A stretch of 19,858 nucleotides of DNA from NCBI GenBank assembly GCA_020348445.1, contig CP070751.1, positions 1,145,219 to 1,165,076 on the forward strand. The letters are read 5' to 3'. Source of the DNA: Thermoplasmata archaeon (GTDB lineage: Archaea > Thermoplasmatota > Thermoplasmata > GCA-020350865). This document shows positions 2,338 to 8,300 of this stretch, piece by piece; positions within the stretch are counted from its first letter, which is position 1; each line of letters starts with the position of its first letter. The notes below the pieces were generated by a model. The model was not told the origin of the DNA. It did not search any database and worked only from the letters and a program-made list of their open reading frames with translations. The position numbers and the translations under genes were made by a program.

Positions 2338-5300
2338 GCCATTTGCATAGGGATTACCAGCTGGGTCGAACATTACCTCGTTTATAACTATAGAATACTG
2401 GTCTTGATTTACAGCGCCCTGGGTCCAGGACCCGGAATGAATGCCAAAGGGATCTGCTTTTCCAGTTTCCGGCCCTTCCCAGTCCGCTGATGAGTTCGTA
2501 TCAGCGCAGTCTCTATCTCGGCCAAAGGATTGGTTCTCAGAAATTGATGAGGTTTTAATGTAATCCCCTGCTGTCCAATGACCCGTATCAACTGCATTGT
2601 CATCACCTGATCCATCAGAACCGCCCCAGGCAACATAATCCATAGGAGCATCGGAGCTATGATAAAGATATAGCCCGTCTGTATAATCCAGTATTCGGGT
2701 AGATGTCATATTGACAACCAGTTTCGGTCTCTTACTTGTATCAGTAGTATAATCGCTTGAATAGAAGAGCTGAGAGTACCCCAAATAATCTGCCTCGAAA
2801 ATCATACCATAATTATCATACATGCCGCGAATCCATCCTTGGACCATATCAGTAATATCCCACGAGTACCAGGCAGTTGATCCACCCAGGACTGTAGTTG
2901 TGTCTTCGATTGAACTATCGTAATCACCGCCTGAGGTCCCCCAATTATTAGAGTTGTCGTAGGTGTCCCAATCAGAGCCACCTGGATCTGTCTCTGTCCA
3001 GTTCTGCGTCATCCTGTGCACATTGACATCGGCATCATTGCTTAGATCCCCCTCGTATCTATATAAGTAAATCTTGGCCTCAGTAACTTTGCCCTGCGGT
3101 AAATCTGATAAGTTGAAATATAAAAGCGATCTTCTTTCATTTGTGTTGTTTTCCACATGTAGATATGTGGTTGTCCCGAAATTTATTGTTGTAGCAGAAT
3201 CATCCAAGAAATTGTCTATTCCATTTGTTGCATTAGGCTGATACACTGAACTGAATATAGAATCATAGACATTTGTAGAGCTGTTTGTTCCTGTTTTACC
3301 TAGATGGCATGTTAGATAGCCTCCAGCTGAAATGCTGCCTGCACCACTTAAATCAAATGTGTTTCCTTCATGATCTTTGAGATACCAACCTGAAAGATCC
3401 ACAGAAGAGCTTTCGGCATTATAGATTTCCACCCACTCATATCCAGGTGAGCTAGTGAGAGATTCTTCACTTCCTGCATAAAGGAAAGAACTAATATCGT
3501 TCTGGTTGTTGTATGATGCATTAATCCAATCCCATGAGCGAACGACATTAGATATTCGGACTTCATCGATTGTGCCATCCCAATATGTTCCTCTTGTACC
3601 TATCCCTATGCCGTTAGTATTCGTATATATTGTAGTTGAGCCTACATCTTCAGTATCTTCTAACTCACCATTTACATATATTTTCAAATATCTCCCGTCG
3701 AATGTACCGAGTACATGCACCCATTCACCGGCAGTCACATAAATATCTGTTGCATGAGTACCTCCTGTCCAGGTTCCAGTTTCGTTGTAGATTCCAAAAC
3801 ACCATGAATCATCCCAACCATGCCAACCAAGAAGCCAGGAGTCTGATTTTTGATTTCCACCAAACCATGCCTCACTTTCCTCGGAAAGAGCATCATCAGA
3901 ATTAAACCATGACTCTACTGTAATGGCATCAGTGATATTCAAACTCGAAGAAAAAGCCACATCAACATAATCATTGGTACCGTCAAATTCATCAGCACCA
4001 TCTATATATCCTGTTGCATCAGTTGTTGAGCCTGCTGTCCCCGCGAAATTCTTGGGTGTACCGTCATTGTCATTAGAAGTTGAGTCTAGATGTCCTGCCA
4101 CATCATTTGCTGGGCTCTCTTCCAAATGCTGAACCATTACGTAATTTGAATCCCAAACACCTTCTGGATTTTCAGCTGAGGAACTCTGTCCGCTGTTACC
4201 GTAATACATATATATTGCGGTGTCAAAGGATGCTGATAGGCTAGGAATCTTGACCCATGCAAATAATTGACCTGAAGGGCTGTTGAAGCTCTCGATCTCG
4301 TGATTCAATACACTCACACCATCTGATCCTGTGAACACAATATCGTATCCATCAGACCGTGCATCGCTGGCGAGGTCGGAATCGGTTATGTTGATAAGAA
4401 CAGGGAAATTTGTAAGACTGCCTGTCACCTTGCTTGAATTTATTGTGATAGATTTGCGATACAACCAACTCGCACTGTTTAACTCCTCATTTCCAATATT
4501 ATAGAAAGTGGAAGGTGAATACTGGTTGTTGTATGATGCATTAATCCAGTCACTGGGACGAACAACATTAGATATTCGGACTTCATCTATTGTGCCGTTC
4601 CAATATACATCTGCACCAGAAGCACCTCCATATCTACCTATCCAAAGGTTTTTACTTGGATTAGGATTTATTGAACCACCAAAATCACCATCCGTCCTCT
4701 TCACTCCATCTACATACATAGAACCATTAGGAGAATCCCAAGTAAAAACAACATGATGCCAAGTATTGGGATTAATTACATATGTATTACTACAAAGACT
4801 TTCACTATAGGTTGAACTATTTCGAAGGTAAGCTGATGCAGTGCCTATATTATTTGCATGTCTATAAACAATTAAGCCGTAACCTCCTGTTCCACGATTG
4901 TATTTGTTTATGACATTATATCTCTTGTATTGAGTTGGGAATTCACCATATAACCAAACTTCCATTGTTATCTCAGTTCCAGTAATATTCAAACTCGCAT
5001 CATTCCCGCAATCAACATAATCATCGATACCATCAAATTCATCAGCCCCGTCTATCTTGCCCGTTGCATCAGTTGTTGAGCCTGCTGCCCCATCGAAATT
5101 CTTGGGTGTACCGTCATTGTCATTTGAAGTGGAATCTAGATGTCCTGCTACGTCATTTGCTGGGCTCTCTTCCAAATGCTGAACCATTACGTAATTTGAA
5201 TCCCACACACCAGTTGGATTTTCAGTTGATGAGCTCTGTCCACTATTCCCATAATACATATAGATTGTCGTATCTGAGGATGATGACAGGCTGGGAATCT

Positions 5301-8300
5301 TAATCCATGCAAATAATTGACCTGAAGTGCTGTTGAAGCTCTCGATTTCGTGTTCAAGAGAGGTTATGCCGTCGGATAAAGTGAACACAATATCATACCC
5401 ATCTGAACGTGCATCGTTGGCGAGATCGGAGTCGGTGATGTTGACAAGAACAGGGAAATTGTTGAGATCACCTGGGACCTTACTTGAATTAATTGTAATA
5501 GATTTGCGATACGACCAACTCGCACTGTTAAGCTCCTCACTACCAATATTATAGAAAGTCGAAGGTGAATACTGGTTGTAGTATTCTGTTATAATCCATC
5601 CCTCTGAACGTGCACCGAACGAAAGGCGCACCTCATCGATCCAACCTTCGGGTGTATTCGAATTATCTCCTATTTCAAAATCATCGGTACTAATGTTGAT
5701 GCTACCAAAAGAGCCACTAATTGGATAAGCATCGTCCTGCCTTTGCTCCACACCATTTTCATAGGCTCGCAACTCATTCTTCCCCCTATCGCACACCCCA
5801 ACTAGGTACACCCAGGTTTCGTTGACAAATCTGAAGTCATTTGTCTCCACAGTTGTTGGATCCGAGACCCTAAAGTACCCTTGTTCTCCATTTGATCGGG
5901 CACGAAGTATATAACCTCCACCAGTGGTAGCTCCTCCTTTGCCCACCAAATTCTGATATCCAGATGTCTCATTGATTTTGGCCCAGCAGCTTACAGTCAT
6001 ACTATTTGTCCCGAATTCAAGATGACCGTCTGGCACAGTGAAGAAGTCCACCTCTGCATCTACTCCATTAAATAGATACGCATACCCTATCTGGCCTGTT
6101 TCCCCTCTGGCAATTGATGCATCAGGTGTTGCAGACAAACCATAAGAAGTCGAGTCGATAGTGGCCCCGCTGGTCTCATCAAGATGCCACACACCCCTGT
6201 AGTTGTTACTCCAGGTAGCGTTAGCGCTCGATTGATCATCTGCATTAGAATTACCGTAATACATGTAAATCAGAGTATCATGAGTTGAGGAGACCAAGGG
6301 AACCTTCACCCATGCATTCAATGCACCTGTTCCGCTGGTGTAACTTGTGAGTTCATGATCGAGCTTTGTTTCTGCATCTGAAGCTAAAAAAAGTATATCG
6401 TCCCCATCAGACTGGGCTTTGCTGGCAAGATCGGAATCAGTAATATCAATTAAAACAGGGAAATCCTCCAAATCTTCAACCACCTTCGTATGATCAATTG
6501 AGATTGCTTTTCGATAAGACCAATCGTCGTCAAAGGGTCCGCCACCAACTGGATCTGCCATTACCTCGTTGATTCTCACATCATTATATATCCATGTGTA
6601 ATTTATCGTGAAGTAAAGATAATCCAAATAGAACGTATCAGGTCCTCCTCCAGTATCTGCTCCGATAACTTGGATGTAAATCCCGCTGTTAATCTGGCTC
6701 ACCGTTGGTAAATTTGAGGTTATTGTGTACGCCTCATCATTATCGGATGTTGCACTAGAATAATTAGCAATGGGATTCTCGGTACCGTCACTCGTCTCAC
6801 TCCATACGACTCCCCAATGGCCTGAATCCTTAACCCAATCCGATGTGTGATGGTATCCCATATAAACAGTCATAGCAGTTATTGTTGCACCTGCGGGTAA
6901 GGATCCTGCACCATATTCACATTCGCCCCACATATTTGTACCCTTTCCTCCCCAGGTCTCTTCATCCCCACCACCATTGCCTGGTTCGTCCTCGTCAATC
7001 AATGTTTCATCGAGAACATTGCTATCATAATCAACACCGTCTATTGGATGAAAATGATCGGATGTATAATCACCGCGGGTCCCCCTTCGGTTTGCAAGCA
7101 AGCTATCCATTATCGTTTGATTCAGAGAAAATGGCAAGGTATCATCAGAATAATCTGTCTCGGATTTCTTCCAGTTTGTAGATAAGAAGTACACCTCAAA
7201 ATATTCGGAATCTGGGTCTATTCCAATTTCGTTCCAGCCTATACCAACCTCCATCTCTACCATATCTAGGCCAACATCCACCCAACCTCGTGCTGTCCAA
7301 TTCCAATCAAAGAAATATGTTCCTGTCCATTCATAATAAATTTGGCTCAGTACCTTATTGTGCCTTCCCTTAATCTCTATCATATAGTCAGCGGTAATTG
7401 GTAGATTCCAACTGTAACCATATCCAGAATTTGTATCGATGAATATGTAAACCACATCCTCACCTGTCTTGGGAAGGGATGTTAAAAACGTGCCATTTAT
7501 TGAAGGCTCTTCTATTGTCGTAGGTTGATGTTTAAGTTTAACATTCCAATGAGGTACAGCAACCCCTGCACATATCTCTGAATCTACTCTCAAGAAAAAC
7601 GCTGCACCCAAATCTGTATTGGAAACTCCATAATTACTAATATCCAAATCGCCTCGGTTCACCTCTCCTATGGTATCGTTGGCTTTAAGTCTGCCCTCCC
7701 AATCAGCAAAAGCACCGTCTATTACTACGTTCTTTGGCAAACCCAGCAGGTAACCGGTCTCATGATGCTGCGAATCCGGTTCTACACGATTAATGTATAC
7801 TGTGCCCTTGTCTATGTTCACATCGTGATTGTTCATGATTCTAAAACCAATGCTGTTTCCTACAATGGTGCTTACGCCGACATCAACCACAATATAAAGT
7901 GAGGTGCTTTGCTCTTCTGAAATGGACAGCCCTGGTTGAAATATAGCTACACCGTCAGTTAGGGTCCCGATACATAAAGCATTTCCAGCCTCATCTTCCA
8001 GTCTTATCCTAGCCACATCACTATCTGCTCCAACACCTGTTCTTGCCGCCCTTATCTCATTTAATGTTATATCAGAATTTATAGCATACAATTCCAAGCG
8101 GGTCAACCTGTTGCCATTTCCGCTTATCACATCTTCTGTCACACCCTGTTGGGTAATTGATAGAATGCCTTTTTCATTGCTGATCACTGTATCTGAAAAA
8201 TCCTCGAATTTGTCCCAACTCTGCATATAAAAAAGAACGTCGATCTCATCCAGTTTTGTCATATCAATAGCAGTTGCGAAAAATTGCATCTCAAGTTCAG

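Follow-up and report, generated by a model that had tools for sequence, protein, structure and literature searches.

A lamin-tail domain probably interrupted twice, by a DUF2341-LamG array and a DNRLRE domain, in a predicted giant surface protein of a Thermoplasmata archaeon

Introduction

The lamin-tail domain (LTD) is an Ig-like beta-sandwich of about 110 amino acids. Ordinary LTDs (PF00932), including the tandem LTDs at locus L007 of the genome analysed here, share an INE first strand, an E-W-V-E-L-Y-N second strand and a G-R-D...D-T...D-W end. Strands 1 and 2 of these domains are about 15 residues apart, whereas in the predicted giant surface protein studied here, from an uncultured Thermoplasmata archaeon, and in its relatives the same elements are separated by 350-1040 residues, and a second domain is found in a later loop.

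Layout of the window protein

The window, that is the whole stretch of 19,858 nucleotides that was analysed, is an entire contig with 100-N spacers on either side, and belongs to a fragmented metagenome-assembled genome (MAG; 354 pieces, 82% complete). The features of its giant open frame are collected in Table 1; residue i of the frame corresponds to window position 10890-3(i-1). The head of the frame is a cytoplasmic zinc-ribbon/TPR/(LTNG)n region, there is one transmembrane helix at about residue 740, and the ectodomain is the bearer of the nested LTD units.

Table 1. Features of the giant open frame in the window
Feature	Residues	Window positions	Strand	Basis or remark
Giant open frame, 3630 aa		1..10890	(-)	3' end lost at contig end
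Strand 1, LTD number 1, DVRINEVMADPVGG	1436-1449	6544..6585	(-)	canonical-LTD HMM, hhalign, homolog invariance
Modules A-C, three DUF2341 + LamG (Laminin_G_3)	1455-2473	3472..6528	(-)	Pfam; identities 34-58%
LTD core, opens with linker + EWVEIYN	2474-2546	3253..3471	(-)	Pfam LTD 50.7 bits
DNRLRE / CBM96 domain, in LTD variable loop	2559-2727	2710..3216	(-)	NF033679, CBM96
LTD tail (ILDYTDGLYLY...DYVAWG...GRD...DW...ADPFG)	2729-2826	2413..2706	(-)	uninterrupted family LTD tails, custom HMM
Strand 1, LTD number 2, YSIVINEVMFDPAGN	2832-2846	2353..2397	(-)	62.0 bits in HMM test
Modules D, E and partial F, second unit	2850-3630	1..2343	(-)	open at contig end

The split of the LTD was found in this frame where the original prediction had placed it: INEVMADP occupies residues 1440-1447 (window 6573-6550), EWVEIYN begins 1037 residues past the end of INEVMADP, at residue 2485 (window 3438), and INEVMFDP occupies residues 2836-2843 (window 2385-2362). 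Modules A-C, of about 335-350 amino acids each, are placed between LTD strand 1 and strand 2. Downstream of the core, GGYLTCHLGKTGTNSSTNVYDSIF precedes a complete DNRLRE domain, after which the LTD tail signature ILDYTDGLYLY...DYVAWG...GRD...DT...DW is found (DYVAWG at residue 2751). Strand 1 of LTD number 2 stands 6 residues past the end-of-LTD motif, the same spacing as in ordinary tandem LTDs. This second unit is incomplete and open toward the contig end, which cuts module F; an end-overlap search of the cut gene against the 5'-truncated fragments L004, L005 and L006 gave zero overlap.

The whole unit had been taken for a super-repeat of roughly 4.2 kb, which was not supported in that form. 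Units contain one, two or three modules, with or without DNRLRE, and the modules of unit 1 are just 31-39% identical to those of unit 2. Partial F is the exception, at 50-70% in its DUF2341 part, and the identities show no pairing of A with D, B with E and C with F. Thus it is the architecture that is repeated, not the sequence.

Reassembly of the LTD from its pieces

The Pfam LTD profile (PF00932, gathering cut-off 34.3 bits) scored 43.5 bits with the whole protein and 50.7 bits with residues 2440-2570. In the native sequence the match begins at position 10 and stops at position 74 of the 109 in the profile, so that neither end of the LTD is found in its usual place. Pfam coverage of uninterrupted LTDs of the family extends to profile positions 99-107 of 109, and the window tail aligns with theirs; searched by itself against Pfam, the tail gave no match. 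On sequence grounds the partial coverage is the discontinuity itself, and no argument against homology.

For excision tests 21 uninterrupted LTDs, taken from unrelated proteins, were made into an HMM of 123 positions. The window core alone matched HMM positions 22-70 with 42.8 bits. With the tail added the match ran over positions 22-110 with 44.7 bits, and when strand 1 was joined on as well it covered positions 2-110 of 123 with 61.4 bits, a gain of 16.7 bits from strand 1. When strand 1 was replaced by 30 random 16-mers of the same protein, the score was 45.4 ± 0.6 bits, with a maximum of 46.7. In the paralog L003 strand 1 was worth 22.8 bits. With hhalign, 18 concatenated units matched canonical LTDs at 99.5% probability (E 3.8e-22, template columns 2-123), as compared to 98.7% (E 1.6e-16, columns 19-123) for the same units devoid of strand 1, and the window strand 1 was aligned onto the first strand of the template. 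In its profile part, the excision check attached to the original prediction came out in its favour: the concatenated fragments match canonical LTDs end to end, and, as judged from these profiles, removal of the inserts leaves all parts of the LTD in place as one full LTD profile.

Structure prediction

The full unit that was modelled is that of a one-module paralog, 57-72% identical to, and not itself, the window protein. AlphaFold2 predicted this unit (711 aa) with pLDDT 80.9 and pTM 0.63, and strand 1 appeared as a beta-strand of seven residues, the 10-residue blocks having mean pLDDT values of 63 and 74. When the same paralog was cut before the LTD (356 aa, pTM 0.89; sequence and alignment rows identical except for the LTD), residues 8-17 were coil with pLDDT below 50. 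In the paralog, therefore, the beta-strand was predicted only with the LTD present, and the packing of strand 1 onto DUF2341, named in the original prediction as the outcome that would speak against it, was not seen when strand 1 was accompanied by the module only. The confidence of the model at strand 1 is moderate, and the pairing of strand 1 with strand 2 is a presumed one.

A split-chain prediction with the window strand-1 33-mer, the core and the tail as three chains, with alignments, gave an ipSAE of 0.46, weak support, as compared to 0.02 for the best control. The runs gave 0.42, 0.46 and 0.63, with partner pLDDT 43-48 and contact agreement of at least 64%. In the calibration set 58 of 80 solved complexes passed the mark, as did 2 of 110 mismatches; at values up to 0.60 there were just 7 of the 80 solved complexes, plus both passing mismatches. 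A split domain could pass such a test through likeness to solved LTDs, and the result is not leaned on. In comparisons of the 711-aa model with the PDB and the ESM Atlas the matches listed were LamG, DUF2341-LamG and one CBM96-like chain; an LTD chain was absent among them, which is uninformative on the position of strand 1. An uninterrupted LTD of the family, compared with the sequences of solved structures, gave only chance-level matches to neocarzinostatin (E 0.07).

Occurrence among relatives

The census covered 31 proteins from the window genome, other Thermoplasmata, Methanomassiliicoccales MAGs and metagenomes. Throughout these proteins strand 1 alternates strictly with the core, apart from two pattern matches (L004 residue 802 and L006 residue 1579) that were discarded on inspection as due to chance. 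The order first strand, one to three modules, core and tail was found in 28 complete units, with a spacing between strand 1 and core of about 350, 700 or 1035 amino acids in 13, 9 and 6 units, respectively. In every complete paralog or homolog unit the array runs into an EW(V/I)E(I/L)YN core, as the original prediction expected downstream of module F. The DNRLRE domain is present in 18 homologous units and missing from 8, as a clean indel with the flanks aligned. In the window genome strand-1 motifs and cores are equal in number, at 9 each; three gene fragments end open past strand 1, and three 5'-truncated fragments begin within the module array and run into the core. Taken together, the excision tests, the clean indel, the 28 units and the AlphaFold2 models support the proposed topology, with the array after strand 1, DNRLRE in a later loop and repetition of this design along the protein.

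The statement that strands 1 and 2 of ordinary LTDs are joined by a short loop held for approximately 96-99% of 765 LTD cores, sampled from the best-scoring 148 representative LTD proteins of a library of 1.84 billion proteins. A first-strand motif was located at most 40 amino acids upstream in 732 of the 765, and inspection revealed variant motifs in nearly all others; only the DUF2341-LamG family had no first-strand motif nearby upstream. A junction between LamG and an LTD core was found in 5 of 301 genomes sampled across the phylum, all of them large-genome MAGs of different genera; it looks like a lineage-restricted innovation. A search of the literature on DUF2341 with the lamin-tail domain, or on insertions in LTDs, did not find the architecture.

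Competing explanations

We consider the LTD to be a real discontinuous domain with two nested insertions, folding in cis from three pieces, and assign to this reading a probability of about 0.8. The INEV..P motif could instead be a relic strand left from ancestral tandem LTDs, a mere linker, with core and tail folding without strand A. Such a relic would fit the detection of the core alone by Pfam above threshold and the AlphaFold2 confidence of just 63-74 at strand 1, but it is unlikely in view of the conservation of the motif: all 23 homologous copies, with flanks that are 25-57% identical, share its N and E. The motif is also retained at the start of every array, even of arrays preceded by non-LTD domains, and never occurs in LTD-less relatives (the strict pattern has no match in 112 LTD-less DUF2341-LamG proteins, which comprise 105,634 residues and 175 module starts); moreover, the predicted beta-strand forms only when the LTD is there.

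An arrangement in which the INEV strand past the tail completes the core of that same LTD, i.e. a circular permutation lacking any insertion between strands 1 and 2, was considered because the tail of internal units is followed about 35 residues later by a strand-1 motif, a distance sufficient for the chain to return along the domain. Single-LTD proteins (L003, P0009-P0012 and P0024), however, carry their sole strand 1 upstream of the array, and terminal LTDs lead into ..DFIIPE(F/Y) and a membrane anchor, a stretch worth 0.2 bits as strand 1 versus 22.8 bits for the upstream one. Taking into account also that in the window genome the spacing between the end-of-LTD motif and INEV is that of ordinary tandem LTDs, and that the upstream strand still formed in an AlphaFold2 construct without the trailing one, we find this permutation highly improbable. 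Completion in trans, in which strand 1 would enter the LTD of a neighbouring molecule to build a mesh or fibre comparable to donor-strand-complemented pili, is very unlikely. The idea is invited by the up to 1040 amino acids that separate the Ig-like domain from the edge strand it lacks, and the free strand-1 peptide placed against the LTD pieces would fit cis or trans equally (ipSAE 0.46, weak support), but strand 1 and core occur 1:1 per chain in fixed order, AlphaFold2 builds the strand in cis in the one-module unit, and no assembly chaperone or comparable partner was noticed in the window. An assembly or gene-calling artefact, with repeats collapsed or misjoined and a motif order that is not real, might be suspected in a fragmented MAG with the gene cut at the contig end. 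This can practically be set aside: the order is identical in 28 units, which come from numerous independent assemblies and sources, the frame is open through 3630 codons, and the modules (31-58% identity) are too divergent for repeat collapse.

Proposed architecture and comparison with known systems

In the discontinuous cis-folding domain that we favour, strand 1 (RINEVMADP, residue 1440) would exit the sandwich, and the chain would build the three lectin-type DUF2341-LamG modules (1037 aa) before re-entering as strand 2 (EWVEIYN) and the core. It would then leave again at the variable loop to form DNRLRE/CBM96 and return for the last strands of the LTD; about 35 residues further on, strand 1 of the next LTD would begin and the design would repeat. 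Successive LTDs would make up the trunk of the ectodomain, and each lectin-type array would form a closed side loop with both ends clasped by the A-B hairpin of the LTD. Given the linkers of about 10 and about 20 amino acids, it is plausible that a three-module array can bring its two ends together. The protein is thus probably branched, not a string of beads, and the labels "branching hub" and "adhesin" used in the original prediction may be apt. The ancestor was presumably a protein with ordinary tandem LTDs, in which the insertion took place after strand 1. As to its putative role, the protein may bind glycans multivalently at the surface, and its side arms, held by the LTD, would bear no force along the trunk.

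Nested domains of a comparable kind are known from integrin beta subunits, where the beta-I domain is within the hybrid domain and the latter within PSI, and from the pneumococcal pilus adhesin RrgA, where D3 is within D2 within D1. The likeness consists in a small beta-sandwich host, binding domains that exit from loops and return, and a branched shape. In contrast to these systems, with which there is no homology, a single host domain here has two separate insertions, one of which is an array of as many as six domains in tandem, and the whole unit recurs along the chain. One to three modules at one beta-hairpin site, combined with a second insertion and with repetition, make this an extreme case of domain insertion, and the architecture could serve as a natural model for the insertion tolerance of a small Ig-like fold.

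Standard annotation of these proteins reports a truncated LTD and a linear order of beads. The probable branched topology, in which closed loops of as many as six domains project from a 110-residue sandwich, alters modelling, construct design and comparison of giant archaeal surface proteins. In the very improbable event that strands are exchanged in trans, the result would be an interlocked, lectin-studded surface mesh and a new archaeal form of donor-strand complementation, derived from LTDs.

The inserted domains and the C-termini

The original prediction of a complete DNRLRE insert was right as to completeness, the NCBIfam model NF033679 being matched over its full length (1.3e-26, model positions 2-164 of 164); the size, approximately 170 amino acids, is slightly below the 190 or so of the prediction. 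In Pfam the segment matched CBM96 (PF24517, 8.3e-18) and PF06848 (4.8e-16). The DNRLRE domain was defined in archaeal surface proteins (PMC2447325), and the founding CBM96 is an alginate binder (PMC9971899). The window copy is neither a bead in a chain nor a lyase appendage, but sits inside an LTD loop. The paralog model was similar to 8wab_B, a solved chondroitin-sulfate-binding module (Z 18.6, rmsd 2.8, 170 residues aligned), a match at the level of the fold; the window DNRLRE domain is a putative carbohydrate binder.

DUF2341 (PF10102, 5.3e-57) was matched in six stretches of the window protein and Laminin_G_3 (PF13385, 1.5e-90) in five, with both profiles, DUF2341 then Laminin_G_3, in each module except the cut module F. 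Matches of LamG, at Z about 20, to the Hc-N part of clostridial neurotoxin and to NTNH reflect fold-level jelly-roll likeness, and a reading as a toxin was rejected; Pfam Toxin_R_bind_N scored 22.6 bits with the window protein, under the cut-off of 23.8.

The C-terminus of the window protein is beyond the contig end. Surface anchoring of the PEF-CTERM / archaeosortase type goes with a PEF motif near the C-terminus, a hydrophobic helix and a basic tail. Examined by eye, the paralogs L003, L004 and L005 and several homologs end with ..IIPE(F/Y).., then a run of hydrophobic residues and K/R residues, and NCBIfam gave no match at E ≤0.01 with two such C-termini.

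The giant gene and the segments of its LTD

The window is one entire contig of a scaffolded MAG (G000:C1:1145219-1165076; completeness 82%, contamination 3.8%) with spacers of 100 N on either side; the nearest named relatives of a neighbouring gene were in uncultured Thermoplasmata archaeon MAGs. In the giant protein encoded here, strand 1, core and tail of a lamin-tail domain (LTD) are separated from each other by a DUF2341-LamG array and by a DNRLRE domain. The positions given originally for INEVMADP, EWVEIYN and INEVMFDP were all exact, and the DNRLRE domain was found to be complete, as claimed. 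Pfam searches identified zinc ribbons and TPR within the first 420 residues, six stretches of DUF2341, five of Laminin_G_3, one Disaggr_repeat/CBM96 domain and a single LTD match, which covered only profile positions 10-74 of 109. No family matched the LTNG/hexapeptide tract, and Pfam and NCBIfam gave no match for the ectodomain stretch that precedes the first LTD strand, starting from the membrane helix. The final ~190 residues of the latter stretch are conserved in the paralogs L002 (46%) and L001 (34%), and in every case lead straight into strand 1.

Features of the giant gene and its contig
Feature	Residues	Window	Strand	Remarks
Giant gene		1-10890	minus	single open frame, 3630 codons, runs off contig
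LTNG repeats alternating with K/R-rich hexapeptides	~465-690	8821-9495		long cytoplasmic tract just before membrane helix
Ectodomain before LTD 1	~760-1435	6586-8600		~680 residues
INEVMADP (strand 1, LTD 1)	1440-1447	6573-6550	minus
Modules B and C		3472-5523		both unit 1
EWVEIYN (LTD core)	from 2485	from 3438	minus
DNRLRE domain	2559-2727		minus	NF033679, model positions 2-164 of 164, E 1.3e-26
DYVAWG (LTD tail)	2751		minus
INEVMFDP (strand 1, LTD 2)	2836-2843	2385-2362	minus
KaiC-like ATPase and double winged-helix genes		10953-12610	minus	directly upstream of giant gene, co-oriented
Further TPR protein		14771-16513
STAND-type NTPase (ATPase_2 / NB-ARC) fused to TPR repeats		17123-19723	plus

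Three pieces match one LTD profile

In-silico excisions of the giant protein were scored with an HMM based on 21 uninterrupted LTDs, all taken from unrelated proteins. When the inserts were removed and the three LTD fragments joined, as had been proposed, the product matched the LTD profile with 61.4 bits. In the paralog L003 the upstream strand 1 contributes 22.8 bits.

Scores of LTD excisions against the canonical-LTD HMM
Construct	Score (bits)	HMM positions
Core alone	42.8	22-70
Core + tail	44.7	22-110
Strand 1 + core + tail	61.4	2-110 of 123
Second strand 1 (residue 2836) + core + tail	62.0	2-110
Strand 1 replaced by 30 random 16-mers of the giant protein (control)	45.4 ± 0.6 (max 46.7)

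Profile-profile comparison gave the same picture: for a profile of 18 concatenated units the match to the canonical LTD profile had a probability of 99.5% and an E of 3.8e-22 and spanned template columns 2-123, with strand 1 falling on the first strand of the template, and without strand 1 the match was 98.7% (E 1.6e-16, columns 19-123). Where core and tail of an LTD in this family are uninterrupted, Pfam coverage reaches profile positions 99-107 of 109, and in an alignment of such LTDs with DNRLRE-containing ones the DNRLRE domain stands out as a clean indel, flanked by ..TNSSTxVYGxI and ..ML..D.L.L.

Order of strand 1 and core among relatives

Several paralogs in the same genome were analysed together with proteins from two database searches. 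Strand 1 and core alternated strictly in 31 proteins, the sole exceptions being two chance pattern hits. The spacing between them in 28 complete units was ~350 (13 units), ~700 (9) or ~1035 residues (6), corresponding to arrays of one, two and three modules, respectively. A DNRLRE domain occurred in 18 units and was missing from 8. The strand-1 pattern did not occur in 112 DUF2341-LamG proteins without LTD (175 module starts, 105,634 residues), so that strand 1 is not a cap found on these arrays in general. The 148 best-scoring representative LTD proteins contain 765 LTD cores; a first-strand motif lay at most 40 residues upstream of 732 of them, and nearly all the remaining cores outside the DUF2341-LamG family had variant first-strand motifs there.

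The genome contains nine strand-1 motifs and nine cores. Three fragments stay open after a strand 1 (the giant gene, L001 and L002), and three (L004, L005 and L006) open within an array, at a contig end, and continue into a core; no end overlap was found between the cut giant gene and the latter three. In the giant gene the contig ends before the position of the second core predicted to follow module F. Contig ends interrupt at least six members of the family, whether genes or gene fragments, including L001, L002, L004, L005 and L006, and the family seems to be a main reason why the assembly of this MAG is broken up.

Structure prediction

The one-module unit of L001 (711 aa, 43-row alignment) was modelled with AlphaFold2, the unit of the window itself being 1400 aa long. 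In the full unit (pLDDT 80.9, pTM 0.63) strand 1 formed a seven-residue beta-strand, residues 8-14, with mean pLDDT of 63 and 74 in 10-residue blocks. When the same sequence and rows were cut before the LTD, the module was predicted very confidently (pTM 0.89) and residues 8-17 were coil with pLDDT below 50, indicating that strand 1 is not packed on the adjacent DUF2341-LamG module; such packing onto DUF2341 had been named as the outcome that would speak against the split LTD. According to these models of the paralog, strand 1 becomes ordered only together with the LTD (and DNRLRE) part, and it presumably pairs within the LTD. When the LTD pieces of the window itself were predicted as three chains, the ipSAE was 0.46, against 0.02 for the best control; the tool rated this 'weak support'.

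Which strand 1 completes which core

The order of the pieces might also be read as a circular permutation, in which each core is completed by the strand 1 following its own tail. This we consider very improbable, because single-LTD proteins (L003 and the database homologs P0009-P0012 and P0024) carry a lone strand 1 that comes after unrelated domains and before the module array. Moreover, substituting for strand 1 the segment that follows terminal LTDs, ..DFIIPE(F/Y) with membrane anchor, gained only 0.2 bits, and the next INE strand begins ~6 residues beyond the end-of-LTD motif (..G..N), as it does in the ordinary tandem LTDs of this genome (L007). Most simply, the family would have started from ordinary LTDs in tandem, which later received module arrays after strand 1.

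At the C-terminal ends of L003 (L003:1-240), L004 (L004:1-240) and L005, and of the homologs P0021, P0024, P0140 and P0141, the segment ..N(V/I)DFIIPE(F/Y).. comes after a terminal LTD, in the position of the next INE strand of internal units, and leads into a hydrophobic helix with a basic tail behind it. This arrangement looks like a PEF-CTERM sorting signal; NCBIfam gave no match at E 0.01 or below on two such ends. In L006 (G000:C1:3153184-3159996) the LTD is followed by ~1500 residues of other beta-rich domains (residues ~750-2271) and no anchor, and P0009, P0010 and P0013 likewise continue with other beta-rich domains in its place.

Repeated design of the unit

The distance from strand 1 to strand 1 in the giant protein is 1396 residues (4.19 kb), close to the ~4.2 kb proposed for the super-repeat. 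As a repeat of sequence, however, the proposal did not hold: except for the partial module F (50-70% identity over the DUF2341 part), modules of unit 1 and unit 2 are 31-39% identical, with no positional correspondence, and unit size differs between paralogs. Judged by sequence comparison, what recurs is the design of the LTD unit and not its sequence. The closest full-length modules are B and C, whose overall identity of 58% (31-40% for other full-length pairs) suggests that part of the insert was duplicated recently.

Distribution and putative function

A search with the LamG-to-core junction covered 301 genomes from across the phylum and found this junction in 5; all five are MAGs, large and incomplete, and they come from different genera. 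Nested insertion of domains is known from other proteins; its new form here is an LTD that repeatedly hosts arrays of up to six domains and a second insert. Our literature search for DUF2341-LamG and LTD nesting or LTD insertions found no paper on such an architecture.

The inserts belong to LamG (concanavalin-A-like lectin/glucanase superfamily) and CBM96/DNRLRE. Together with the cytoplasmic head, the one membrane helix and the very large ectodomain, they suggest that the giant protein is most likely a multivalent glycan-binding surface protein. Alginate is bound by the founding member of CBM96 (PMC9971899), and archaeal surface proteins are where DNRLRE was originally described (PMC2447325). 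In a structure search the DNRLRE part of the L001 model resembled the chondroitin-sulfate-binding module 8wab_B (Z 18.6).
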